Shown piece by piece: positions 3,180 to 60,322 of a stretch of 64,000 nucleotides of DNA. The stretch comes from Patescibacteria group bacterium. GTDB lineage: Bacteria > Patescibacteriota > Patescibacteriia > Patescibacteriales > JAQVLT01. The DNA is taken from NCBI GenBank assembly GCA_028704015.1, contig JAQVLT010000004.1, positions 6,052-70,051 of the forward strand, written 5' to 3'. The notes under the pieces are model-generated. The model searched no databases. It worked only from the letters and a program-made list of their open reading frames with translations, and was not told the DNA's origin. A program made the translations under genes and the position numbers. The stretch's first letter is position 1. Each line of letters begins with the position of its first letter.

Positions 3180-3203
3180 CCTGCCTGCCTGCCGGCAGGC
3201 AGG
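3180..3203. repeat. GC-rich palindrome CCTGCCTGCCGGCAGGCAGG (copy 1 of 2; the second copy is at 26429-26446)
   Basis: A perfect 10+10 palindrome immediately after the L,D-transpeptidase stop. An identical core recurs at 26429-26446. Confidence 0.6.
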
Positions 3204-12926: not shown

Positions 12927-13271
12927 ATGAATTTATTAATAAAATTTTTAATCATGATTGCAGCAATATTAATTACCGCCTATCTATTGCCTGGCGTAGT
13001 TATTGGTGGAATTTGGTCGGCAATCTGGGTGGCAATAATTATTGGAATAATAAATGTAACCTTAAAACCATTACTTATTTTATTAACTTTGCCAGTGAAT
13101 ATTCTAACGCTCGGCTTATTTACATTTGTCATCAATGCCTTAATGATTTTGCTGGCATCAAGTATAATTAAGGGTTTTGAAGTTAGCGGTTTTTGGATCG
13201 CGATGTTATTTAGCATTGTTTTGTCATTAATCAGTTATTTGTTAAATAGTTTATTCAAAGCGTTTGAATAA
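12927..13271 (+). CDS. Phage holin family 4_2 (DUF360, YvlD-like) membrane protein
   Basis: LPGVVIGG...IINVTLKPLLILLTLPVNILTLGLFTFVINALMILLAS closely follows the YvlD/DUF360 pattern; 114 aa, 4 TM. Confidence 0.75.
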   Translation: MNLLIKFLIMIAAILITAYLLPGVVIGGIWSAIWVAIIIGIINVTLKPLLILLTLPVNILTLGLFTFVINALMILLASSIIKGFEVSGFWIAMLFSIVLSLISYLLNSLFKAFE

Positions 13272-13280
13272 TAACAATCG

Positions 13281-13340
13281 CGAAGTGTGATATAGCGGTA
13301 TTACGTCCCGCCGCGGCGGGATAATCCGGGTTCAGATTTG
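13281..13340 (+). pseudogene. tRNA-like fragment (5' half duplicated from the downstream tRNA; anticodon arm replaced by a GC palindrome)
   Basis: CGAAGTGTGATATAGCGGTATTACG and ...TAATCCGGGTTCA align with tRNA 13386-13456. There is no 3' acceptor complement, and the anticodon region is TCCCGCCGCGGCGGGA (5-bp stem, 6-nt loop). Confidence 0.5.
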
Positions 13341-13385
13341 GGTTAAAAAAAATCAAATTACTTTTAATAACTAAAGTTGTTATAT

Positions 13386-13456
13386 CGGAGTGTGGTATAA
13401 CGGTATTACGCACGCTTCGGGTGCGTGTAATCCGGGTTCAATTCCCGGCACTCCGA
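13386..13456 (+). tRNA. tRNA-Pro (anticodon CGG)
   Basis: Cloverleaf folded by hand: acceptor CGGAGTG/CACTCCG, U8, A14, GG in the D loop, anticodon stem CACGC/GCGTG with loop TTCGGGT (U33, CGG, G37), T arm CCGGG-TTCAATT-CCCGG, discriminator A. 71 nt, CCA not encoded. Confidence 0.65.
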
Positions 13457-13479
13457 CAAAATCAAAAAACTCTTACTCT

Positions 13480-14220
13480 ATGAAAAAATTATACCTGTTA
13501 ATTATTTTTATTATTATTTTAGGCGCCTATTTGTATTGCTCCTATGTTTTTATTTACAAAAAAATTGATTGGGCTGGCTTAAGATCGCCTGACAGCCAAA
13601 AAATTTATTTAATCAATAACAATATGCAATCCGGTAAAAATTTGATCTACGTTGCCCTGGGCGATAGTTTAACTGCCGGCGTAGGCGCGGATAAATACGA
13701 ACAATCTTTTACTTATTTATTAGCGCAAAAAATAGCCGGCGATAATCAGATAACTTTAAAAGATTACGGATTGCCAGGCGCTAAGACCGATGATTTGATA
13801 GAAAAACTTTTAAATTCAGCGATTACCGATCAGCCGGATATTCTGACACTATTGATTGGCGTTAATGATGTGCATTATCGGGTTGGCAAAGACGAATTCC
13901 AAAAAAATTACGATGAAATTTTGCGACAACTTACCGCGAAAACAAAAGCCAAAATTTATTTGATTAATATTCCTTACATCGGCGCCAATGATTTGATATT
14001 GCCGCCTTATGATTCTTATTTTGAGTCGCGCGCTCAAGAATTTAACGTCGTAATTAAGGAATTGGCGGAAAAATATCAACTTAAATATATTGATTTATAC
14101 ACCCCGACCGTAGACCAGTTCAAAAAAAACGGCCCGCATTATTCGGCCGATTCTTTTCACCCTTCCGCCGAAGGTTACGCTGTTTGGGCGCAAATAATTT
14201 ATGATCAAATCAATCAGTAA
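13480..14220 (+). CDS. SGNH/GDSL-family hydrolase
   Basis: GDSLTAG (block I), GVNDV and DSFHPSAEGY (catalytic His block). Start set at MKKLYLL because the track's upstream Met would run through the tRNA. Confidence 0.75.
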   Translation: MKKLYLLIIFIIILGAYLYCSYVFIYKKIDWAGLRSPDSQKIYLINNNMQSGKNLIYVALGDSLTAGVGADKYEQSFTYLLAQKIAGDNQITLKDYGLPGAKTDDLIEKLLNSAITDQPDILTLLIGVNDVHYRVGKDEFQKNYDEILRQLTAKTKAKIYLINIPYIGANDLILPPYDSYFESRAQEFNVVIKELAEKYQLKYIDLYTPTVDQFKKNGPHYSADSFHPSAEGYAVWAQIIYDQINQ

Positions 14221-15346
14221 TCCCATTGAAGCCACTTGGATTTTTTCCATTATTTTAATTATCGCGTTGCTGGCCACCGCGCGCCGCAAGAAAGACAACG
14301 ATTTTTTTTCTCTCGCACTCACGCAAGAGTTGAAGGGGTTGGCGATTTTAGCCGTGGTCTTTTCGCATTTCGGTTATTTTTTGACAAGCGATAATCATTT
14401 TTTATTTCCGCTATCCACCTTGGCGGGCGTGGGCGTTAATCTGTTTTTGCTTCTTTCCGGGCTCGGGTTGGTTACCAGCGCCCTGAAAAAACCGTTGCCC
14501 ATTTTCCAATTTTATAAAAAACGTTTGTTGAAATTGTTCGCGCCGCTTTGGATCACGCTAATTGTTTTCTTAACTTTGGATTATTTTGTTTTGCATTTGA
14601 CTTATTCTTGGCCGGTAGTTCTTCAGGCATTTTTGGGCATCTTTCGCCACGCGAACCTCTATACCGATATCAATTCGCCGCTTTGGTATTTCACTTTGAT
14701 TTTATTTTATTATTTGATTTTTCCTTTGGTTTTTTCAAAAAAATACCCTTGGCTCTCGGCTTTGATTATTTATTTTGTTCCGTATTTTATCTTACGGGAA
14801 AATCCGGGCTGGCTGATTAATGTTTTGGGAATGTATCAGGTGCATCTCATGGCTTTTCCGTTGGGAATGATTTTTGGCTGGTTATTTTATAATCCCGGCT
14901 GCTTGGCGCGATTGCCATGGTTTAAAGTAATCGCCGAAAAACTCAAATGCCAAAATAAATTTGCCAAGCTGGTAAAAAATATTAAACCCGCCAGTTATTA
15001 TTTTCTAATGATTTCTTTGATCGTTTTTATTATGCACTTTGTTTGTTATTCCGGAGTGGGTGAGGGGCTCGACAAGGAACAATGGATTAGTATAATTACA
15101 GTCCTGGCGATTATGTTTTTGTTCATCATAAAAAAAATTGAATTTAAATTGTTTTATTGGTTTGGCGTGTACTCTTATGAAATTTATTTAATTCATTGGC
15201 CGCTGGCTTATCGTTATGATGTATTTTATAAATACTTGCCGGCTTGGCTCGCGACTGTTTTTTGTCTGGCGTTTGTTTGGTTTTTAAGCAAAGGGCTGAA
15301 TAAATTGTCAAAAATAATTTTAAGTAAAACTGTTAAACTAAATTAA
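14201..15346 (+). CDS. Acyltransferase-3 family membrane O-acyltransferase
   Basis: ELKGLAILAVVFSHFG hallmark and about 10 TM segments. Overlaps the SGNH gene by 20 nt. Confidence 0.75.
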   Translation: MIKSISNPIEATWIFSIILIIALLATARRKKDNDFFSLALTQELKGLAILAVVFSHFGYFLTSDNHFLFPLSTLAGVGVNLFLLLSGLGLVTSALKKPLPIFQFYKKRLLKLFAPLWITLIVFLTLDYFVLHLTYSWPVVLQAFLGIFRHANLYTDINSPLWYFTLILFYYLIFPLVFSKKYPWLSALIIYFVPYFILRENPGWLINVLGMYQVHLMAFPLGMIFGWLFYNPGCLARLPWFKVIAEKLKCQNKFAKLVKNIKPASYYFLMISLIVFIMHFVCYSGVGEGLDKEQWISIITVLAIMFLFIIKKIEFKLFYWFGVYSYEIYLIHWPLAYRYDVFYKYLPAWLATVFCLAFVWFLSKGLNKLSKIILSKTVKLN

Positions 15347-15351
15347 AATTT

Positions 15352-16362
15352 ATGAATCTTGGCAATCTAAATGTAATCTTAAAATCGTTTCCGTCTTTTC
15401 GCTTTAAACAAGCTGAAGAGGCGATTTACAAAAATCTAATCTCTAATTGGAATGAATCAAATTTACCGAAAGAACTGAAAGAATTATTAAGCAAAGAATG
15501 TCCGCTGGAAATTAAAGCTGAATTGCTAAAATCTAAAGACGGAAAAACTTACAAAGCTTTAATTAATTTGGAAGATGAAAACGCTATTGAGACAGTCCTG
15601 ATGCGCCATAAAGATGACCGAAATACCGTCTGTGTTTCCTCGCAAGTCGGCTGCGCGCTGGGCTGTGATTTCTGCGCCACTGGAAAATCAGGTTTTAAAA
15701 GAAATTTGACCAGCGGAGAAATTATTGAGCAGGTTTTATTTTTTGCTCGTTTCTTAAAAAAAGAAGGCCAAGCAATTACTAATGTAGTATTTATGGGAAT
15801 GGGGGAGCCATTATTAAATTACGACGAGGTGATAAGAGCGATTAAAATTATCAATGACAAAAATAAATTTAATATCGGCGCGAGAAAAATTTCCGTTTCC
15901 ACTGTCGGAATTATTGAAGGCATAAAAAAATTAACCAAAGAACCTCTGCAAATAAATTTAGCGCTTTCTCTACACGCGCCCGACGATAAACTAAGGAATG
16001 AACTCATGCCGATAAACAATAAATATCCGCTAAAAAAAATACTGAGTACGATAAAAGAATATATCGCGAGAACTAACCGCAAAGTAATGATAGAATATTT
16101 GATGCTTGAAAATATCAATGACTATCCCGAGCAAGCCGTTCAATTAGCGGAGTTATTGAACAATAATTTAGAAAGTTTGTACTTCGTAAATTTAATTTCC
16201 TATAACCCAACGGGAATATATAAACCGTCACGCTCCGAAAGAATTGAAAAATTTAAAGAAAATCTGGAAAAATGCGGAGTAGACGCCATTCAAAGATATC
16301 GTTACGGCGTTGATATTAAAGGCGCTTGCGGACAGTTGGCGGGAAAAAGACGCACGAAATAA
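15352..16362 (+). CDS. rlmN: 23S rRNA/tRNA adenine-C2 methyltransferase RlmN (radical SAM)
   Basis: CALGCDFCATG CxxxCxxC cluster and a GMGEPLLN motif. Confidence 0.8.
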   Translation: MNLGNLNVILKSFPSFRFKQAEEAIYKNLISNWNESNLPKELKELLSKECPLEIKAELLKSKDGKTYKALINLEDENAIETVLMRHKDDRNTVCVSSQVGCALGCDFCATGKSGFKRNLTSGEIIEQVLFFARFLKKEGQAITNVVFMGMGEPLLNYDEVIRAIKIINDKNKFNIGARKISVSTVGIIEGIKKLTKEPLQINLALSLHAPDDKLRNELMPINNKYPLKKILSTIKEYIARTNRKVMIEYLMLENINDYPEQAVQLAELLNNNLESLYFVNLISYNPTGIYKPSRSERIEKFKENLEKCGVDAIQRYRYGVDIKGACGQLAGKRRTK

Positions 16363-16364
16363 TT

Positions 16365-17069
16365 ATGATTATAAAAAATAAAAAAATAATTCACGGAATT
16401 TCTCTCAGAAAAAACGGCTCAATGAAATTTCTCGGCAACATTCAAGATGAATTAATTAAAAATAACAGAAAAAAATTCTTTGCCAAAATTAATATCAAAG
16501 AAAATAATATTATTTCCGCCGGCCTGTCGCACCAAGATAATATAAAAATAATTTCGCAAAAAGACAAAGGAAAAATAATCAAGAATTGCGACGGACTCGT
16601 CACTATTGAAAAAAATTTAATTTTAACCGTAACAGTTGCCGATTGCCTGCCAATTTTTATTTATGATCGCGAGAAAAAGATTGCGGGAATTATTCATGCC
16701 AGCTGGCGCAATTTGCGTTTGAATATTTTATCCCAGGCCGTTGAGCTATTAAAAAATAAATACAAAATCAATCCAAAAAATTTGTTAGTTCATATTGGTC
16801 CGTATATTAGTAAATGCCATTTTGAGGTAAAAAACGACGTCGCAAATAAATTTAAAAAATATAAAAATGCGATAATTATAAAAGATAAAAAAATATTTAT
16901 TGATTTGGCGGAAATTGCCAGAGGGCAATTAATAAGAGGGGATATAATAAAGAAAAATATAAAAATCAGCAAAGAATGTACGTATCACCAAAAAAATAAA
17001 TATTTTTCGCATCGTCGTGAAAAAACCAAAGATATTAAAGCAATGATCGCGTATATCGGCTTAAAATAA
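16365..17069 (+). CDS. pgeF: Peptidoglycan editing factor PgeF / YfiH (DUF152 laccase-domain protein)
   Basis: TVADCLPIFIYD and HASWRN motifs. Start at MIIKNKK just after the rlmN stop. Confidence 0.7.
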   Translation: MIIKNKKIIHGISLRKNGSMKFLGNIQDELIKNNRKKFFAKINIKENNIISAGLSHQDNIKIISQKDKGKIIKNCDGLVTIEKNLILTVTVADCLPIFIYDREKKIAGIIHASWRNLRLNILSQAVELLKNKYKINPKNLLVHIGPYISKCHFEVKNDVANKFKKYKNAIIIKDKKIFIDLAEIARGQLIRGDIIKKNIKISKECTYHQKNKYFSHRREKTKDIKAMIAYIGLK

Positions 17070-17092
17070 TTGTAATATAATAAATTTAAATT

Positions 17093-17677
17093 ATGAATTT
17101 TGCCCATTGGTTAGTTATATTAAGCGTATTTGTAAGCGCTAGCGGTTCCTACGCGTATATTCGTGATACGTTAAGCGGAAAAACAAAACCAAATCGCGTG
17201 TCTTGGTTAATGTGGTCATTGGCGCCGCTTATTGGAACTTTAGCTGCTTTATCAATAAAAGCTGATTTTTGGGCAACTTCTCGTATTTTTTTGGCAGGAT
17301 TTTTCCCCCTGCTAGTTTTTATATTTTCTTTTGTAAACCCAAAAAGTTATTGGAAATTAACCATATTTGATGTTATCTGCGGTATTTGTTCTGTAGTCGC
17401 TTTAATTGCTTGGTGGTTAATAAATTCACCACAAATAGCAATACTTATGTCTGCGATTGGAGATGGTTTTGCTGCTCTGCCCACTATTAGAAAAGCTTGG
17501 AAATTTCCCGAGAGTGAAACTGGAATAACTTATGCCGCCGCATTAATAAGTGTCATACTAGTCCTGCCTTCCATCCCTGTTTGGGATATTAAAAATTCTG
17601 CTTTCCAAATTTATCTTTTACTAGCCAATTCAATTTTATTGTTTGCCGTGTATCGAAAAAAAATATTTTCATTATAA
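17093..17677 (+). CDS. Hypothetical integral membrane protein
   Basis: Five or six hydrophobic segments. Confidence 0.5.
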   Translation: MNFAHWLVILSVFVSASGSYAYIRDTLSGKTKPNRVSWLMWSLAPLIGTLAALSIKADFWATSRIFLAGFFPLLVFIFSFVNPKSYWKLTIFDVICGICSVVALIAWWLINSPQIAILMSAIGDGFAALPTIRKAWKFPESETGITYAAALISVILVLPSIPVWDIKNSAFQIYLLLANSILLFAVYRKKIFSL

Positions 17678-17953: not shown

Positions 17954-18003
17954 TTTTGTCATCTCAACGATCCCGCCCGCGGCGGGACTCGGAATGACAA
18001 AAA
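17954..18003. repeat. Short palindromic element with TTTTGTCAT / ATGACAAAA termini and internal TCCCGCCCGCGGCGGGA hairpin
   Basis: The terminal inverted repeats match the larger element at 41900-42060. The core hairpin is near-identical to the anticodon-arm replacement in the pseudo-tRNA at 13306-13321. Confidence 0.5.
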
Positions 18004-24375: not shown

Positions 24376-24930
24376 ATGGAGACTAAACGTCTATTTTTAG
24401 CATTAAATTTATCAAGCAAGGAAAAAGATATAATTTTCAGCACAATCGAAGTTTTGGCGGCGCAAAGCAACGGCATAAAATGGGTGGGGCCGGAAAATCT
24501 GCATATCACTTTGCGATTTTTGGGCGATATTGATACCGAATTAGAAGAAGAAATAAAATTGGAATTAGAAAAATTGGAAAATAACTTTGGCGAATTGAAA
24601 TTTCAGGCGAGAGATTTGAGTGCTTTTCCGAATTCAGACGAACCGCGCGTTATTTATCTTGACAGTTTTCAGACTAATGGCCAAACGGCTAGCAATTTGT
24701 ATTATAAAGTAAAAGAAATGGCGGAAAACTTCGGTATCAGAACCGACAATCGCCCGTGGACGCCGCACATTACTTTGGGACGAGTAAAAAACGATCGCGC
24801 CTATGCAAACTTAAAACAAAATTTCAGCGCTCTACCTTTTGATTTTTCCGTAACCAGTTTTGAATTAATGGAATCAGAACTAACTTTTAATGGCAGCGTT
24901 TATAGAATAGTGAGGAGTTATAAATTATAA
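24376..24930 (+). CDS. thpR: RNA 2',3'-cyclic phosphodiesterase ThpR / LigT (2H phosphoesterase)
   Basis: Two H-x-T-x motifs (HITLRF and HITLGR) at the expected spacing; 184 aa. A TTGCTA-17-TATTAT promoter precedes it. Confidence 0.75.
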   Translation: METKRLFLALNLSSKEKDIIFSTIEVLAAQSNGIKWVGPENLHITLRFLGDIDTELEEEIKLELEKLENNFGELKFQARDLSAFPNSDEPRVIYLDSFQTNGQTASNLYYKVKEMAENFGIRTDNRPWTPHITLGRVKNDRAYANLKQNFSALPFDFSVTSFELMESELTFNGSVYRIVRSYKL

Positions 24931-25038: not shown

Positions 25039-26283
25039 ATGAATATTTTCGGCATTAAAATTTCCAATATTAAAAAAGACGAGGTCTTAAAAAAGATTGG
25101 CGATTTTTTAGTTGACGGAAAACAGCATTATTTAGTTACGCCCAATCCGGAAATACTCCTTCAGGCCGGCGAGGACGAAGAACTTTTTTATATTTTGAAT
25201 CACGCCGATCTCGCGATTCCCGATGGCATCGGGCTGAAATTCGCCGGTTGGTTTCTGGGAGAAAATCTCAAACGGATTACCGGCGCTGATTTGGTTTTAA
25301 AAATTTTGAAAAGTGCCGGAGAAAAAAATCTGAAAGTCGGGATTGTGAATTGGAACAAGGGATTGTCAAATAAAAAAGATATTTCAAATTCATTGAAACA
25401 AAAATATCCGAAATTAAATTTTGCGGTTGAAGATGTTAATCGCGAAGAAGCTAAGCTTCCTATAGGAAGCTTAGCTTCTGATTTTTTGAATTTCAATCCC
25501 GACATTCTCTTCGCCGCGCTTGGCGCGCCATATCAGGAAAAATTTATTTTTCATAATTTAAAAAAATTGCCTTCGGTTAAACTGGCGATTGGCGTGGGCG
25601 GCAGTTTTGATTACATTACTGAAAAAGCGCGTCGAGCGCCGAAAATCATGCGAAATTTAGGCCTAGAATGGCTCTGGCGACTTTGCGGCATCTTTTCCGG
25701 ACAAAAGGATTATAATCGCAAAAAAAGGATACTTAAAGCGATTTTTGCCTTTCCTTGGAAATTTATAAAATGGCGAATTATTTTGCCTTTTTTATATCGT
25801 AATAATGTCGCTTGCCTGATGTACAAAAGGGAAGGGAATAAGTATAAAATTTTTTTGGTAAAAAGACAGAACGCGAAAGATGAACATTGGCAGCTACCAC
25901 AGGGAGGAATTGATAAAAGCGAAAATTTATTTACCGCCGGCAAGAGAGAATTACGCGAAGAAGCCGGCACGGATAAATTCAAAGCGGTGATGGCCGAAAA
26001 AAATCTTCATAAATATACATTTGATAAAAAAATAAGCAAAGAGGAAAAACAAATGCACACGGGCTACAAAGGCCAAAAGCAAAGTTTGTTTATCGCCGAA
26101 TTTTTGGGAAAAGATGAGGATATTAAAATTAATTTTTGGGATCATCTTGGTTGGAAGTGGGTTGACGCGGAGAAATTGGTTCGCGAAGTGTATTTTTTAC
26201 GCCAACCCGCCGCGAAGATTTATTTGGAGAAGTTTAATACTGTCATTGCGAGCCCCGAAACTTCGGGGCGAAGCAATCTATAA
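25039..26283 (+). CDS. WecG/TagA/CpsF-family glycosyltransferase (GT26) fused to a C-terminal NUDIX hydrolase domain
   Basis: N-terminal VTPNPE and PDGIGL motifs and an LEWLWRL C-terminal helix of the TagA family. Then a perfect NUDIX box GGIDKSENLFTAGKRELREEAG. One continuous reading frame. Confidence 0.7.
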   Translation: MNIFGIKISNIKKDEVLKKIGDFLVDGKQHYLVTPNPEILLQAGEDEELFYILNHADLAIPDGIGLKFAGWFLGENLKRITGADLVLKILKSAGEKNLKVGIVNWNKGLSNKKDISNSLKQKYPKLNFAVEDVNREEAKLPIGSLASDFLNFNPDILFAALGAPYQEKFIFHNLKKLPSVKLAIGVGGSFDYITEKARRAPKIMRNLGLEWLWRLCGIFSGQKDYNRKKRILKAIFAFPWKFIKWRIILPFLYRNNVACLMYKREGNKYKIFLVKRQNAKDEHWQLPQGGIDKSENLFTAGKRELREEAGTDKFKAVMAEKNLHKYTFDKKISKEEKQMHTGYKGQKQSLFIAEFLGKDEDIKINFWDHLGWKWVDAEKLVREVYFLRQPAAKIYLEKFNTVIASPETSGRSNL

Positions 26284-26480
26284 TATTTGGCGATTTGAAC
26301 GAACAGCAAGCCATTAAAGATCGCCACGGCCTACGCCTGCCGGCAGACAGGCGCAGCCGAAGAATCTCGGAAAGCAAAATAAGCAGGTTTTATTTTATAG
26401 AAGGCGCTCAACGGTTTCACTGAGATCCCTGCCTGCCGGCAGGCAGACTTCGTTCCGAAGCTTCGGAACTCAGGATGACA
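26253..26480. repeat. Composite GC-rich palindromic repeat region (MITE-like; ends TGTCATTGCGAG ... GGATGACAAAAA)
   Basis: Contains the palindromes CATTGCGAGCCCCGAAACTTCGGGGCGAAGCAATC, CGCCTGCCGGCAGACAGGCG, CTGCCTGCCGGCAGGCAG and GTTCCGAAGCTTCGGAAC. The 5' part overlaps the last about 10 codons of the GT26-NUDIX ORF. Confidence 0.4.
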
Positions 26481-26490
26481 AAAATAAATT

Positions 26491-27498
26491 ATGTCCAACA
26501 AAATTACTAAAAAATATTTTAAATATTCAAGCGATAATAAAAATCTTGAAAAAAATATTAATCAAGTACTCTTAGAAACTAATTTTAAAATTGAAAAAGA
26601 AATTTTCCGCGGCGTTATTTACGATCAAAACAAAGTTGGCAGTATTATTTATAAGGGTAAATGGAAAAATAAAACCGCGATTCTGAAAATTCAATTTTTA
26701 AAAATTGAAATAGACGAAGTAGAAATTATTAAAAAATTTAATGGACTGAAAAAATTCAGAAATATCAGAGCGCCGCGATTATTTGATTATAAAAAATGGA
26801 ACGCAAAAAGCGGATATGGTTATTTGATTACGGAATATATTGACGCCCCGCAAATTTACAATGCGCCATTGGCGACTGATAAACAAATCAAAACTTTTGT
26901 AAATTTTTATAAAAATTATAAAGAAAAAATTTCCGATAAGCCATTTTTACGTATCGCGCCGGATAAAAATATCTATAATCTCACCGAGCGGCGCGTTAAC
27001 CATTGGCTAAAAATCGCCCAAGCCAAAAAGACGCTTGATAATCAAGACAAAATTTATTCGGATAAATTCTTAGCGCTCGCCAAAAAATATTCACCCAAGA
27101 TTAAAATGCAATTTATGCATGGTCATCTGATGAGCCGCGATATTTACCAAATTAACAATGAAAAATTTGTCTTAATGTCCAATTTATTTTGGTCATATCG
27201 ACCGGAGTATTACGACGCGGCATTTAATCTTTGGGCAGGAATCAAAAGCATTAGAGATTTAAAAATTAAATCGCAACAAGTGATTGAATACACGCAAAAA
27301 TGGTGTAATGAGTACAAAAAACTTGATTTCATCAAAAAGGACTATGATTTTGAGAAAAAATTCAATATAATGATATTGGAGAGATGTATTGGCGCTTTGC
27401 TTGTTGATATTGACAATCAGGATTACGAAAATAAGCCAGCATTACACAAAAAACATTTAAAAACAATTTTTAGAAAATTATTTGATTATTATTTTTAG
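26491..27498 (+). CDS. Hypothetical protein, possibly kinase-like
   Basis: 335 aa; FMHGHLMSRDIY is weakly reminiscent of the phosphotransferase HGD box. Low-confidence function. Confidence 0.5.
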   Translation: MSNKITKKYFKYSSDNKNLEKNINQVLLETNFKIEKEIFRGVIYDQNKVGSIIYKGKWKNKTAILKIQFLKIEIDEVEIIKKFNGLKKFRNIRAPRLFDYKKWNAKSGYGYLITEYIDAPQIYNAPLATDKQIKTFVNFYKNYKEKISDKPFLRIAPDKNIYNLTERRVNHWLKIAQAKKTLDNQDKIYSDKFLALAKKYSPKIKMQFMHGHLMSRDIYQINNEKFVLMSNLFWSYRPEYYDAAFNLWAGIKSIRDLKIKSQQVIEYTQKWCNEYKKLDFIKKDYDFEKKFNIMILERCIGALLVDIDNQDYENKPALHKKHLKTIFRKLFDYYF

Positions 27499-33218: not shown

Positions 33219-34181
33219 TTAGTTTTTTAACTTCTTACCGCTATGTAGATTCTTATGAATGTCGCGGAGTTGCTTATTAGTAACGTGAGTATAAATTTGC
33301 GTAGTTGCAATATTCCTGTGACCAAGAAATTCTTGCACCAAGCGCAAATCTACGCCGTTAGACAGTAGATCTGTGGCAAATGAGTGGCGAAGGGTATGCG
33401 GAGTAGCCATTACCGGCAAACCGCCAATTTTGACGTATTTTTTGACAATATCTTCAACGCTTTTAGGTGTTAGACGTCTAGAAGCGGCGGTTTTACCGGT
33501 ACCTGGCTTATAATTTATAAACAACGCTTCATCTAGATCGCCACGGCCGTCTAAATATTTTCTCAACCATTCAATCGCGCGCTCGGAAAAATAAACCGTG
33601 CGAACCTTTTGCCCTTTGCCAATCACGGAAATCTCCAAATCTTTAATGCCGGTTTTTATTTTTAACTGCTCGCGATTCAAAGCAACCAGTTCAGCCACGC
33701 GCAATCCGGTAGAAAATAAAGTTTCTAGAAGCGCTCGATCCCTTAAACCAATCTTGGTTTTTATATCCGGGGTCAGAAGCAGGCGTTCAACCTGGTCTAA
33801 ATTTAAAAATTTAACTTCTTTATCGGCCTTGTCCTTGGCTAATTTGATTTTAGAAGGCGACAAAGTGGCAATATCTTTTTCTACAAAAAATTCCAGCAAG
33901 CTGCGTAGAGCAATCAAGTAATAATTCTGTGTAGATTTTTTTAATGATTTTTTTGTTCGCGGATCAACATGGCGAGATAAAAAAACACGATACTTCCAAA
34001 CGTGATCGCTGGTCAAGTCTTTAGGCTTCAGTTTATCCAACTTGTTGTCCCTCAACCAGCTAAAGAATCTCTGCAAAAAACGAGTATAATTTTCCTGAGT
34101 TTTAGAGCTCAAGCCTTTTTCAATTTCGGAATAATCCAAAAAGTCGGTTAAGTATTGAATTATTGTTTTATTTTTTGTCAT
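33219..34181 (-). CDS. Site-specific tyrosine recombinase, XerC/XerD family
   Basis: N-terminal SAM-like core-binding domain, then a C-terminal catalytic domain with R (GLRVAEL), HTLRHSFAT, LGH and TQIYTHV (Tyr nucleophile). Confidence 0.8.
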   Translation of the reverse strand: MTKNKTIIQYLTDFLDYSEIEKGLSSKTQENYTRFLQRFFSWLRDNKLDKLKPKDLTSDHVWKYRVFLSRHVDPRTKKSLKKSTQNYYLIALRSLLEFFVEKDIATLSPSKIKLAKDKADKEVKFLNLDQVERLLLTPDIKTKIGLRDRALLETLFSTGLRVAELVALNREQLKIKTGIKDLEISVIGKGQKVRTVYFSERAIEWLRKYLDGRGDLDEALFINYKPGTGKTAASRRLTPKSVEDIVKKYVKIGGLPVMATPHTLRHSFATDLLSNGVDLRLVQEFLGHRNIATTQIYTHVTNKQLRDIHKNLHSGKKLKN

Positions 34182-38671: not shown

Positions 38672-39229
38672 TTATTTCCATAATTTATAAATTTTACAAT
38701 TTTTTCTGTCTAACAAACTTTTTAAAGTAAAATTATTAACTATCATCAAAGTTAAACTATTAATTTCCGCCTCGCAATATAAATTTTTTCCTATCTCTTT
38801 TTTAGCTTCTTTTATTTTTTCATCGGTTAAATGGCGACCAATGGTAACGTGCGGTTTAAATTTCTTTTCATAATCCTTATATTCTGGCAAAACATAATCG
38901 CCATATTTTGCTAAATTTTTGCTGATCACTTTTTGCAACTTTAATAATTCTGGATTTTTGTCAGCTTTAACCATTATACACCAACCACGCGAAGATTTAT
39001 TGCTCGTCCATAGCTTTGAAAAACCTAATTTTATAGACCTAAAATTTTTAGCAATAATTTTAATATCCTCTTTTAAATTGTTAATATCTTTTTCTTTTAC
39101 TTTTGTTCCGTTTTTTAACGATATATGAAATTTGAACGGTTTATCATATTTTTTTCTAAAACCGTCAAACCAATCAGGTTTTTTTGTTAATTTGAATTCC
39201 ACAATAACATTAAAATATTTCATAATCAC
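38672..39229 (-). CDS. 2H phosphoesterase superfamily protein (LigT-like)
   Basis: Two H-x-[ST]-x motifs (FHISL and HVTIG) about 95 aa apart. Confidence 0.5.
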   Translation of the reverse strand: MIMKYFNVIVEFKLTKKPDWFDGFRKKYDKPFKFHISLKNGTKVKEKDINNLKEDIKIIAKNFRSIKLGFSKLWTSNKSSRGWCIMVKADKNPELLKLQKVISKNLAKYGDYVLPEYKDYEKKFKPHVTIGRHLTDEKIKEAKKEIGKNLYCEAEINSLTLMIVNNFTLKSLLDRKNCKIYKLWK

Positions 39230-57131: not shown

Positions 57132-58721
57132 TTATATTAAACTTTCTCCTGTCATTTCCTTCGGTTGCTCCAAATTTAAAATTTTTAAAATTGTAGGGGA
57201 AATATCCGCCAATGCTCCTTCTGGCTCCAAAAGACTTAAATCATGCCCCGGAGCTTCTTCAAAACCGATATTTTTCCCTTCAAATTCTTTACTGACAATA
57301 ATAAACGGCACCGGACTATTGCTGTGGCCTTTCTCATAAACCTCTGTCTGCATATTTAACATTGATTCCGCATTTCCATGGTCAGATGTAATAATTATTG
57401 TTCCATTTTTAATTAAAACTAAATTTACTAATTTCTCCAAACATTTATCCAGACATTCAATGGCTTTAATTACCGCCTTTACGTCTCCGGCATGCGCCAC
57501 CATATCGGGATTTGCATAATTAACCGCGATAAAATCGTAATAATTCTTTTCTATCTGTTTAAGTAACTCCTCGGTAATTTTTAATGCGGACATCTCTGGC
57601 TTTAAATCGTAGCTAGATACAATCGGTGAAGGAACTAATATGTCGTCCTCGCCAGCAAACTTTTTGTCCTCCCCGCCATTAAAAAAATAAGTGACATGGG
57701 CATATTTTTCCGTCTCGGCAATATGCAATTGTTTCAAACCCGCGTTAGCAATAACCTCGCTGATTGAATTTTTAAAATACTCGGGAGGAAAAGCAACACT
57801 GACCGCCAAATCTTTTTCATACTCCGTAAAACTGATAAAAAATAAATTTTTAAAAATTTTTGAACTTTTTACTTTGTCGGGAAACAAAAATGCTTTAGTT
57901 AATTGCCTGGCGCGATCGGGACGAAAATTGAAAAAAATTACCGAATCATTATCACCTACCTTGGTTATACTTTCTCCATACTTTGCAGCTACCAATGAAG
58001 AAATTTCTTCGTCATAAATTTTGTTTTGATAGCACTGGCTGATAGCGTCATTAATATTTTCAACTTTTTTACCTTCACCATTAACAATAGCTTCATAAAC
58101 CATAGCCGTTCGCTCCCAGTGATTATCGCGATCCATGGCATAAAATCTTCCGGAAACCGTTGCAATTATACCGATTCCAATTTTTTCCAACTCATCTTTT
58201 ATCTTATTAATTAATTCCAATCCTCTTTGATTATTAATATCCAAACCGTCAAGAAACAAATGGAGATAAACTTCTTTGATTTTGTTTGTTTTCGCCAGTT
58301 TCAACAAAGCAAACAAATGCTCGGTAGAAGCATGCTTATTAGCATCGGAAATTAACCCCAGAAGATGCAAATTTGAGTTATTCTCTTTAACATTTTTTAT
58401 CGCGCTTTTTAAAACCGGATTCCTAAAAAAACTTTTATCTTTGATAGATTTATTTATTCGTAATAAATCTTCAGTAACTATCCTGCCCAAGCCGATATTC
58501 ATATGACCTACCTCGCTATTACCTGGCTGACTATCCGGCAATCCCACGGCACTACCGGCTGCTTTTAGCGTAGCGGCAGGATAATTAGCAATTAACTTAT
58601 TAAAAAACGGCGTTTCCGCCTGAGTAATTGCATTACCGCTATAATTTTGCTTCACTCCCCATCCGTCTAAAATAATCAGAAGCAAAGGTTTGGGGGGCAA
58701 AATATTTAAATCTTTATCCAT
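57132..58721 (-). CDS. gpmI: 2,3-bisphosphoglycerate-independent phosphoglycerate mutase (copy 1)
   Basis: ILDGWG, GHMNIGLGR (Ser nucleophile region) and SDHGN metal-binding motifs; 529 aa. Confidence 0.85.
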   Translation of the reverse strand: MDKDLNILPPKPLLLIILDGWGVKQNYSGNAITQAETPFFNKLIANYPAATLKAAGSAVGLPDSQPGNSEVGHMNIGLGRIVTEDLLRINKSIKDKSFFRNPVLKSAIKNVKENNSNLHLLGLISDANKHASTEHLFALLKLAKTNKIKEVYLHLFLDGLDINNQRGLELINKIKDELEKIGIGIIATVSGRFYAMDRDNHWERTAMVYEAIVNGEGKKVENINDAISQCYQNKIYDEEISSLVAAKYGESITKVGDNDSVIFFNFRPDRARQLTKAFLFPDKVKSSKIFKNLFFISFTEYEKDLAVSVAFPPEYFKNSISEVIANAGLKQLHIAETEKYAHVTYFFNGGEDKKFAGEDDILVPSPIVSSYDLKPEMSALKITEELLKQIEKNYYDFIAVNYANPDMVAHAGDVKAVIKAIECLDKCLEKLVNLVLIKNGTIIITSDHGNAESMLNMQTEVYEKGHSNSPVPFIIVSKEFEGKNIGFEEAPGHDLSLLEPEGALADISPTILKILNLEQPKEMTGESLI

Positions 58722-58735
58722 AAAAAAATAATAAA

Positions 58736-60322
58736 TTATCTTATTAAACTCCTACCCGTTATTTCTTTCGTTTTTTTTCTATTTAGCAAATCCAATATAG
58801 TTGGCATAATATCGCCTAAATTTCCACCTTTACGTAATTTAATATTCGGCTCTAAATTTTTTCCGACGATAATAAATGGAACGGAGTTAACCGAATGTTT
58901 TGTATCAACTTCTCCGGTTTCCAGATTTATCATTTCTTCAATATTGCCGTGATCGGCTGTTACCAAAACCGTACCGCCAATTCTCAAATAAGCCCTAACA
59001 ATATCTCCCAAATAATGATCCACGGCTTCACAACATTTAATTCCCGCCTCCAAATTGCCGGTGTGTGCCACCATGTCTGGAGCGGCGAAATTTAAAACCG
59101 TAAAATCGTATTTCCATTTTTTTTCTATTTTATTCAAATTTTTAATCACCTTAATAGATAATTCCTTGGTTCTCATTGCTGGTGTTTCATCATACGATTT
59201 TACATCCGGCGAAGGAATCATTTGCTGTTCCTCGCCATTAACCCTGCCGGAATAGCCGCCGTTGAAAAAATAAGTAACATGGGCGTATTTTTCTGTCTCG
59301 GCAATATAAAGCTGAGTTAAATCTGATAATACCATAGGCAGGGTATTTTTCAAGTCTAAACTCGGAAATGCGGAAAGAATAGAATCTAGGTCAGGACCAA
59401 AATCAGTCATAGCAACAAAAAATAAATTTTTTAATACCTTTTTTCTTTTAAATGCTGCGGGGTTATCTTTATTAAAATCTTTTTGCACAAAAACTTTGGA
59501 AAGCTGGCGAGCCCGATCAGACCGCAAATTAAAAAAAATGACGCTGTCATTATCATTAATCCTCGGGCATTGTTTTAATTTGCTATTTAAAATAATATGC
59601 GGCTCAAGAAATTCATCGCTCTCCCCCTGATTATAACTTTTGGTAATAGCTTCTTCGGCGCTCTTGGCGGTTTTACCTTCGCCCATAACTAAGGCATTGT
59701 AAGCTTTCTCAGTTCTAATCCACTTTTTCTTTCTATCCATAGCATAAAAACGCCCCATAACCGTAGCAATGCATTCGCCATTTTTAAATGATTTACGCAA
59801 ATCCTGCACTAATTTTAAAGAAGCATATTTTCCCGAATCACGGCCATCGGTAAAAAGATGCAAATACACATTTTTTATATCATTCCTTTTGGCAAATTCT
59901 AACAAGGCAAGCAAATGATCGGGATCGCTATGCGGACTCTGGCCGTTAGAAAGCATCCCCATAATATGAAGATTTGATTTATTTTTTTCAACATGTTTAA
60001 CCGCTTCAAGAAAAGCGGTATTTTTAAAAAATATCCCGTCAGTGATGCTTTTGCTAATACGCACTTCATCTTGTTCCACTACTCTTCCCGCGCCAATGTT
60101 CATATGTCCGGCTTCACTATTTCCGACTTGATTATCCGGCAGACCGACACACTCGCCATGAGCACAAAGCAATGTATTTGGATATTTTTTTAAAAGCCCG
60201 TTCATAGTCGGTGTTTTTGCTAAAGTTACCGCATTTCCTTTGTTGGGCGGCGCAATCCCCCAGCCGTCAAGAATGACGAGAACTAAGGGTAGTATATTTT
60301 TTCCTTTCGGTTTATTTTTCAT
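58736..60322 (-). CDS. gpmI: 2,3-bisphosphoglycerate-independent phosphoglycerate mutase (copy 2, tandem paralog)
   Basis: ILDGWG, GHMNIGAGR and ADHGN motifs; 528 aa. Clearly diverged from copy 1 but co-linear. Confidence 0.85.
   Translation of the reverse strand: MKNKPKGKNILPLVLVILDGWGIAPPNKGNAVTLAKTPTMNGLLKKYPNTLLCAHGECVGLPDNQVGNSEAGHMNIGAGRVVEQDEVRISKSITDGIFFKNTAFLEAVKHVEKNKSNLHIMGMLSNGQSPHSDPDHLLALLEFAKRNDIKNVYLHLFTDGRDSGKYASLKLVQDLRKSFKNGECIATVMGRFYAMDRKKKWIRTEKAYNALVMGEGKTAKSAEEAITKSYNQGESDEFLEPHIILNSKLKQCPRINDNDSVIFFNLRSDRARQLSKVFVQKDFNKDNPAAFKRKKVLKNLFFVAMTDFGPDLDSILSAFPSLDLKNTLPMVLSDLTQLYIAETEKYAHVTYFFNGGYSGRVNGEEQQMIPSPDVKSYDETPAMRTKELSIKVIKNLNKIEKKWKYDFTVLNFAAPDMVAHTGNLEAGIKCCEAVDHYLGDIVRAYLRIGGTVLVTADHGNIEEMINLETGEVDTKHSVNSVPFIIVGKNLEPNIKLRKGGNLGDIMPTILDLLNRKKTKEITGRSLIR

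Follow-up and report, generated by a model that had tools for sequence, protein, structure and literature searches.

A truncated tRNA-Pro(CGG) copy with a GC palindrome in place of its anticodon arm in a Patescibacteria chromosome, a probable remnant of local duplication

Partial (non-canonical) tRNA genes beside intact ones are known as leftovers of element integration or recombination (van der Gulik et al. 2023, PMC9897764), and in Caldiarchaeum a 5' fragment of tRNA-Thr is found upstream of the replacement gene (Sugahara et al. 2012, PMC3293823). The feature considered here is a partial tRNA copy at positions 13281–13344 of a 64-kb stretch of Patescibacteria (candidate phyla radiation, CPR) chromosome (the window; G+C ~35%, with housekeeping gene content). 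It lies on the same strand as the intact tRNA-Pro(CGG) gene that follows it and carries a GC palindrome in place of the anticodon arm. Like the published cases, it is a truncated, same-strand and non-working copy beside a functional gene, and, as in Caldiarchaeum, a 5' fragment occupies the upstream position. In those cases, however, a kb-scale element that encodes a recombinase lies between fragment and gene, whereas the window has a gap of 40 nt, no element, and a palindrome standing in for the anticodon arm. Another precedent is the E. coli tyrT locus, which reportedly contains 3.14 repeats of a 178-bp unit that has the last 19 nt of tRNA-Tyr at its end. There too, short units re-copy part of a tRNA beside the intact gene, but the tyrT units repeat the 3' end downstream, whereas the window holds a single 5' copy upstream, with a palindrome.

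The palindrome calls to mind a second group of systems. Rickettsia palindromic elements and the enterobacterial repetitive extragenic palindromes and bacterial interspersed mosaic elements (REP/BIME) are small palindromic repeats. Mitochondrial genomes carry repetitive hairpin-forming and double-hairpin elements (PMC2800124), and yeast mitochondria contain GC clusters (PMC4478555). The window shares with these families the occurrence of short intergenic GC hairpins in an A+T-rich genome, at times double and able to sit inside RNA genes; it differs in a very low copy number (2 in 64 kb) and in having no associated transposase that could be seen. The third comparison is with the disrupted tRNA genes of archaea, which have non-canonical introns in the D, anticodon, variable and T loops or are split and permuted (PMC4390854, PMC3218864). 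Here, as there, GC helices interrupt tRNAs at their loops, and in two loci of related genomes (L165 and L106) the tRNA halves are joined by a long helix. The archaeal genes, however, are functional and are processed by a splicing endonuclease at a bulge-helix-bulge, whereas the genes described here are bacterial and the interrupted copies lack essential parts; neither such a motif nor such an enzyme came to light, no search aimed at them having been made.

The copy is most readily explained, with a probability of roughly 0.7, as a predicted non-functional relic of the adjacent tRNA-Pro(CGG), which would have been duplicated in part, locally and on the same strand. The source gene, at 13386–13457 on the + strand, was called by ARAGORN as the only tRNA gene of the window and matches Rfam RF00005 with 60.2 bits. 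A first-pass annotation, made from the letters alone, had proposed that the 5' part and the beginning of the T arm are duplicated ~105 nt upstream, that a GC palindrome substitutes for the anticodon stem-loop, and that the 3' acceptor strand is missing from the copy; all of this is borne out by pairwise alignment. The 5' segment (13281–13305, + strand; CGAAGTGTGATATAGCGGTATTACG) runs from the 5' acceptor strand through the D arm to the base that precedes the anticodon stem and matches the tRNA at 22 of 25 positions (13386–13410, offset 105). It is followed at 13306–13321 by the perfect 16-nt palindrome TCCCGCCGCGGCGGGA, which folds as a hairpin of 6–7 bp and occupies the place where the intact tRNA carries its 17-nt anticodon arm, CACGCTTCGGGTGCGTG; by eye, the two share about 5 of 17 positions. 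The last segment (13322–13344, + strand) opens with the variable region and the 5' side of the T arm (13322–13334, TAATCCGGGTTCA), identical at 13/13 positions to 13428–13440 of the tRNA at an offset of 106, and continues with a diverged T loop and 3' T stem, GATTTGGGTT. The blocks are collinear and on the same strand, with blastn-short E values of 1.4e-4 (5' block) and 5e-4 (T-arm block) in a search space of ~670 nt. Beyond the start of the T loop the copy reads GATTTGGGTTAAAAAAAA and similarity to the tRNA collapses. The complement of the 5' acceptor strand CGAAGTG is not present downstream in the copy, which leaves no 7-bp acceptor stem, and two substitutions, G3A and G10A, would disrupt pairing in the acceptor and D stems. 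The palindrome encloses a loop of at most 4 nt, not the 7-nt loop with U33 and anticodon on a 5-bp stem that an anticodon arm has.

The window was searched with ARAGORN and Rfam for tRNAs and other RNAs, with a terminator scan, and with Pfam for open reading frames (ORFs). ARAGORN made no tRNA call on the copy; where the first-pass annotation had expected one tRNA plus a pseudo or low-scoring match, it returned the one tRNA alone. RF00005 did not match the copy even at E ≤ 10 on a 281-nt stretch, and the families of Rfam 15 gave only chance-level matches under their gathering scores. A cryptic functional tRNA was rejected on the ARAGORN and Rfam results. No other fragment of this tRNA was found anywhere in the 64 kb, and within the window no 3' fragment follows the intact gene. 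Upstream of the copy lies a gene for a membrane protein of the Phage_holin_4_2 family, hereafter the holin-like gene (12927–13271, + strand; Pfam 1.1e-32; assignment also backed by synteny in four relatives). Logan contigs from SRR22315503 and SRR22315502 are identical to the window over the end of this gene, the copy and the 5' half of the tRNA; because two assemblies of separate runs carry the same sequence, the copy is real DNA and no assembly artefact. An A/T-rich spacer, read from the sequence, connects the copy to the intact gene (13345–13385, + strand). It showed no significant similarity to the 3' flank of the tRNA or to the DNA upstream of the copy, and a shared AAAATCAAA after both copies was not confirmed (flank similarity not significant, p 0.06–0.3).

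Related loci were collected through tRNA-Pro(CGG), and a pattern built from the window tRNA, scanned over metagenomes, yielded 77 loci. All 77 hold an intact tRNA-Pro gene, and none of them has the exact dead copy; genes identical or near-identical to the window tRNA were present in 75 metagenome loci. Synteny based on the downstream lipase gene was uninformative for this site, since none of 80 GTDB loci had tRNA-Pro(CGG) upstream of the lipase. The useful comparison came via the holin-like gene instead. In four of four syntenic relatives (L092, L110, L167 and L170), this gene is followed by tRNA-Pro(CGG) without any upstream copy, across gaps of 31, 5, 1 and 54 nt, respectively, vs 114 nt in the window. 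The copy is therefore lineage-specific. Of all collected Pro genes, the adjacent tRNA matches it best, differing at 3 of 25 nt. Similarity to the neighbour that is collinear and on the same strand, together with a lack of conservation at the orthologous site, is the signature of a fragment or pseudogene of a neighbouring gene. Two other origins suggested by the gene clusters of relatives were considered. Many of the 77 metagenome loci contain the cluster Pro(GGG)–Ala(CGC)–Pro(CGG), but a remnant of the ancestral tRNA-Pro(GGG) of such a cluster is unlikely, given that the G9, TATTAC and TAATC sites fit the CGG type and that the copy's own neighbour is the best match. The position of tRNA-Ala(CGC) ahead of Pro(CGG) in many relatives prompted the reading of the palindrome as a degraded Ala(CGC) anticodon loop (CCGCGG read C[U]CGCGG); this was rejected, as 16/16 distinct Ala(CGC) stems end in CA/TG, unlike TCCCG/CGGGA. 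No tRNA-Ala remnant was found upstream of the holin-like gene.

To place the copy among its relatives, every ARAGORN tRNA of all fetched loci (~170 related loci) was compared with the 300 nt on either side of it. Partial copies turned up beside 8/76 genes for Pro(CGG), 5/48 for Ala(CGC), 2/33 for Pro(GGG), 2/5 for Val(CAC) and 1/3 for Leu(CAG), or ~10% of these genes. None was found beside 15 Pro(TGG), 10 Leu(TAG), 8 Phe and 7 Met genes (40 in total). In this sample, which is biased toward tRNA-Pro(CGG) loci by the way they were chosen, partial copies are confined to isoacceptors that have C34 or G34 and decode codons ending in G or C. The 22 matches, at 17 tRNA genes, all lie on the same strand as the intact neighbour. 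They are also strictly polar: copies of the 5' end are upstream and never extend past tRNA position 55, and copies of the 3' end are downstream and never begin before position 19. Approximately half of the downstream copies comprise the last 15–19 nt, from the T loop on, with nearly all at 100% identity. This polarity results whenever a duplication or insertion has one of its breakpoints within the gene, and the fragments therefore originate in situ. Of the 77 metagenome loci, none matched the tRNA pattern twice, so that no tandem pair of intact copies was seen, which suggests that the fragments were born partial and are not decayed full duplicates.

GC hairpins accompany these fragments. Their intergenic density is 1.8-fold higher within 200 nt of a tRNA than elsewhere (1.29/kb vs 0.71/kb). 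tRNA-like fragments occur in 18/165 GC-hairpin flanks vs 26/1390 control intergenic 35-mers, a ~6-fold excess in which one of the 18 matches (L052) is an artefact, a real tRNA cut by the locus end. Within the fragments of related loci, the hairpins are often at loop positions. Downstream of tRNA-Ala(CGC) in L170 (1135–1335), a 98-nt unit present twice in tandem, formally like those of tyrT, consists of spacer, GGGTTC, two different GC hairpins and GAATCCCCTCAGGTCCAC, the last 19 nt of the gene. L115 and L162 have GGGTT, two hairpins and CAATTCCCGG; L156 has TTC, TCCGCCGGCTGGCGGA and TCCCGG; L167, whose Pro(CGG) gene is of a different sequence family, has a palindrome between GGTTC and AAAGTCC; and in L110, AATTCCCGG is directly preceded by a hairpin. 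Two cases are found in L095, where GTCCGCCGCGGCGGAC, almost the palindrome of the window, abuts a tRNA-Leu(CAG) 3' fragment on its 5' side, and a 5' fragment of Pro(GGG) type has a CCTGCC..GGCAGG palindrome after its D arm. The window copy, in which the replaced part is the anticodon arm, is thus one example of a composite of tRNA fragment and palindrome that recurs. We know of no description of a preference for loop positions of tRNA fragments in the mitochondrial, Rickettsia or REP hairpin families.

Within the window, the palindrome has a near twin, TCCCGCCCGCGGCGGGA, at 17971–17987, as the first-pass annotation had reported; judged against dinucleotide shuffles, 0.07 such matches are expected. 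The twin forms the core of a 43-nt palindromic mini-element, TGTCAT-CTCAACGA-TCCCGCCCGCGGCGGGA-CTCGGA-ATGACA, which lies at 17957–17999 in the gap between a DUF167 gene and uppS, 4.6 kb from the dead copy (DNA fold −16.6 kcal/mol, z −6.1). In L092, where the gene order is holin–tRNA-Pro–DUF167–uppS, the same gap measures 10 nt vs 61 nt in the window; the mini-element is therefore an insertion in the window lineage, or its absence a loss in that of L092. No further copy of the palindrome core exists in the 64 kb, and the description of it as "dispersed" was overstated. Elements with TGTCAT...ATGACA ends occur in 6 other loci; these are longer (81–128 nt), have the ends TGTCATTGCGAG...CTCGCAATGACA, and are packed with GC hairpins. 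A further stretch of ~235 nt in the window (26245–26480) lies between the ORF at 25039–26283, the end of which it overlaps, and the ORF at 26491–27498. It begins with TGTCATTGCGAG, ends with CTCAGGATGACA, and contains four GC hairpins, including CCTGCCTGCCGGCAGGCAG and GTTCCGAAGCTTCGGAAC. From its sequence, it probably resembles a miniature inverted-repeat transposable element (MITE) and belongs to the same family as 17957–17999. Both stretches terminate in G[A/G]ATGACAAAAAT right before a start codon. Another palindrome, (CCTG)3CC-GG(CAGG)2, is present at 3180–3203 in the A/T-rich gap before a NifU gene, and the CCTGCC..GGCAGG type recurs at 26334 and 26428 and beside tRNA fragments in L095 and L103.

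On sequence grounds, the palindrome would be a member of a small hairpin-repeat class comparable to REP, Rickettsia palindromic elements and the mitochondrial GC clusters and repetitive hairpin elements. The hairpin families TCCGCC..GGCGGA, CCCGCC..GGCGGG and CCTGCC..GGCAGG were considered as proof of mobility, but that argument is weakened. Few sequences are available to a GC-only stem of 6–7 bp, and among the CCGCC...GGCGG hairpins of the loci are some ordinary terminators. Because the sequence space is this small, likeness alone does not prove mobility, and convergence of GC-only stems is a possible source of the resemblance. A Pfam and recombinase survey of the 59 window ORFs of at least 100 aa found no transposase, no REP-associated tyrosine transposase (RAYT) or IS200-IS605 type gene, and no serine recombinase. 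The sole recombinase of the window is a Xer-like gene at 33219–34181, 20 kb away.

The proposed origin of the copy starts from a short duplication, or an insertion with duplication, by which at least ~59 nt, counted from the 5' end of the tRNA, would have come to stand a second time in the interval after the holin-like gene, upstream of the tRNA gene; with one breakpoint inside the gene or at its edge, one intact gene would survive. In the redundant copy, the anticodon arm may then have been exchanged for the GC palindromic repeat shared with the mini-element core, whether by short-patch illegitimate recombination, by a template switch between hairpins, or by insertion of an element, and the 3' T stem and acceptor strand would have been lost or mutated away. 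Without a cloverleaf or an anticodon, the resulting RNA could presumably not be charged. Since relatives place the tRNA 1–54 nt after the holin-like gene, with no terminator or good promoter between, the two genes are probably co-transcribed, and the remnant would be spacer RNA, freed at the RNase P cut that makes the tRNA 5' end. In the predicted fold of the precursor RNA, the intact cloverleaf is kept and the remnant forms two independent hairpins (z −2.8). These hairpins would end up at the 3' end of the upstream mRNA, where their effect would be incidental at most.

Several observations weigh against so simple a history. Divergence between copy and source is very uneven, with 0/13 and 3/25 differences in the two blocks vs near-complete divergence in the anticodon arm and the 3' part. 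Such a distribution is not expected from simple neutral decay and would call for replacement of patches, gene conversion with the neighbour, or constraint on the retained blocks; it points to patch-wise events rather than uniform decay. The arm swap, 16 nt for 17 nt, is almost base for base, which is odd for random insertion of an element. The palindrome is present in only two copies in the 64 kb, without a transposase, RAYT or serine recombinase gene in the window, and the flank comparisons gave no significant limits for the duplicated unit. The first-pass annotation had interpreted the locus as the scar of a palindromic-element insertion into, or a recombination with, a tRNA gene. This was upheld insofar as the copy is dead, duplicated and lineage-specific, the core of its palindrome recurs in an inserted mini-element, and hairpins are ~6-fold enriched at tRNA fragments; transposition would be one possible route by which the palindrome arrived.

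The same annotation had also raised a tRNA-derived regulatory RNA. Such a molecule might signal the processing or stabilisation of the mRNA of the holin-like gene or of the tRNA precursor, or serve as a decoy or regulator. Two stable hairpins do follow directly after the upstream stop codon, and the region with the copy folds better than shuffled sequences (z −2.3 and −2.8). Conservation is higher in the two blocks than in the remainder of the copy, and the part derived from the T arm (13322–13344) forms a G-U-rich hairpin of 9–10 bp as RNA and no such hairpin as DNA, so that it pairs only as + strand RNA. These z-scores are modest, however, and none of the four syntenic relatives has the copy, which also matches no Rfam family, while G3A and G10A break tRNA helices instead of preserving them. 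Because the copy is not conserved, carries helix-breaking substitutions and has its own neighbour as best match, a functional RNA is very unlikely, and the suggestion was not supported. Nor is the palindrome an intrinsic terminator; the hairpin is followed by TAATCCGGG, with no T run or U tract, and the terminator scan made no call at 13306–13350.

A different kind of explanation comes from tRNAs nested within tRNAs in the related loci. Perfect inverted repeats of 11–13 nt flank 5 intact tRNAs, whereas the other ~225 have repeats of 4–9 nt, and 4/5 of the repeat-closed genes sit inside a disrupted tRNA of the same anticodon and strand. In L165 (1200–1445), one Pro(CGG) gene is lodged in the anticodon loop of a second, whose acceptor stem differs, and RNAfold nests both (−112.5 kcal/mol). 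L106 (900–1300) has three nested layers, L103 (560–800, − strand) a nested Ala(CGC), and L095 (7640–7900, − strand) a nested Val(CAC) in which the split is in the D loop; an inverted-repeat-flanked tRNA is also found in L130 (8390–8540). The junction letters TTCA, before the left repeat, and CAA, after the right repeat, recur in L165, L106 and L103. When the expanded cluster of L095 is set against the compact orthologous cluster of L118, the outer Ala(CGC) and Arg(CCG) pieces match the L118 residents and the inner intact genes differ. These arrangements allow a speculative and rather doubtful proposal of targeted turnover among tRNAs for G/C-ending codons (Pro-CGG, Pro-GGG, Ala-CGC, Val-CAC, Leu-CAG and Arg-CCG). 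A tRNA closed by a GC inverted repeat of 11–13 bp would insert into the loop of the resident with the same anticodon, leaving its 5' piece upstream and its 3' piece downstream; palindromes would be collapsed cassette ends, and the window copy an emptied target. If true, this would be a self-replacing ("homing") tRNA gene cassette, to our knowledge a kind of mobile unit not described in bacteria.

Applied to the window, the proposal has an insert with GC-rich inverted repeats at its ends enter the anticodon arm of the resident tRNA-Pro, after which the interior of the insert was lost, the ends fused as the palindrome, and the neighbour remained as the replacement copy. It draws on the nested architecture of L165, L106, L103 and L095, where an intact tRNA between perfect inverted repeats of 11–13 bp lies inside a split tRNA of the same anticodon, and on sequence likeness: the inverted repeats begin CCCGCCCA, CCCCGTCAC or TTCCCGCCCCGC, the L130 repeat TTCCCGCCCCGC / GCGGGGCGGGAA would, when collapsed, give a palindrome almost identical to that of the window, and the near-identical GTCCGCCGCGGCGGAC stands at the tRNA-Leu(CAG) 3' fragment of L095. 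The intact gene, however, is 40 nt downstream of the remnant and not within the palindrome, no 3' fragment follows it in the window, and there is no trace of the strands of the anticodon stem seen on either side of the repeats in L165, L106 and L103. With an order of events that is also more complicated than plain duplication, this origin of the copy is unlikely. The most improbable of the origins considered is an attachment-site scar, in which an element borne by an integrase or serine recombinase integrated into the tRNA gene and was later deleted. Anticodon and T loops of tRNAs are reportedly the classical crossover sites of integrases. Element integration is documented to leave partial tRNA genes (PMC9897764), including the archaeal 5' fragment upstream of a replacement tRNA (PMC3293823). 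Large serine recombinase genes (524 aa; Resolvase, Recombinase and Zn_ribbon_recom domains) adjoin tRNA-Pro or tRNA-Leu 3' ends in L098 (370–2300), L095 (125–2063) and L117 (11555–13150), with the ORF running antisense into the tRNA. Those of L098 and L095 are bounded by inverted repeats of 147–158 nt that are 97–98% complementary, contain a CCCGCCTTCGGCGGG hairpin, and begin with the final 4–5 nt of the neighbouring tRNA gene, which is Pro(GGG) or Leu(TAG). The L117 recombinase, 81% identical to that of L098, is next to tRNA-Pro(CGG), and decayed recombinase remnants lie beside tRNA-Pro(CGG) in L123, L137, L140 and L108. The duplicated part in the window, however, is the 5' portion, 40 nt from the intact gene, and not a 3' direct repeat bounding a recombinase-encoding element. 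No recombinase gene or remnant was found nearby by tblastn of the L098 recombinase, which had no match in the window, or by Pfam analysis of the neighbours, and no direct tRNA repeats were seen around the intact serine-recombinase elements of the relatives.

Apart from the holin-like gene, the surroundings of the window tRNA vary. The downstream gene, at 13480–14220 on the + strand, encodes an SGNH/GDSL hydrolase (lipase; Pfam 2.2e-33), and its product is 100% identical to a protein of a metagenome-assembled genome named "Patescibacteria group bacterium". Five genes separate the window tRNA from DUF167, namely those for the GDSL hydrolase, an acyltransferase_3, a radical SAM protein, a Cu-oxidase_4 family protein and a 194-aa ORF; in L092, by comparison with window positions 13458–17642, tRNA-Pro(CGG) is directly followed by DUF167 and uppS. 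L004 has the order tRNA-Pro(GGG)–hydrolase–acyltransferase–uppS, and a minihelix-like tRNA remnant of 30 nt sits 10 nt upstream of its tRNA. Gene content beside this tRNA is fluid. Three Logan contigs (L001, L002 and L003) end within the anticodon loop of tRNA-Pro(CGG), and one tRNA sequence is identical in 26/77 of the metagenome loci; the contig breaks likely reflect a tRNA body common to many co-occurring Patescibacteria, which branches the assembly graph. Elsewhere in the window are two LigT-like 2'-5' RNA ligase/phosphoesterase genes (24376–24930 and 38672–39229), for which no link to tRNA remnants was shown. Two paralogous genes for cofactor-independent phosphoglycerate mutase adjoin each other (57132–58721 and 58736–60322) next to those for enolase and phosphoglycerate kinase.

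The window feature belongs to known kinds, and the preference of palindromes for loop positions and the nesting of same-anticodon tRNAs in the relatives may be new; no description of either in bacteria was found in the literature searched, an incomplete library. By itself, the copy matters little: it is a tRNA fragment, dead and best left uncalled by annotation pipelines, and the mark of a recent rearrangement in the interval from the holin-like gene to tRNA-Pro. In these genomes, which are reduced and A+T-rich, tRNA loci are hot spots where small-scale remodelling follows a strict polarity, and the pattern in related genomes merits genome-wide study. If the targeted mechanism were true, it would bear on how tRNA genes are exchanged and maintained in minimal genomes and would provide a bacterial counterpart to the disrupted tRNAs of archaea.

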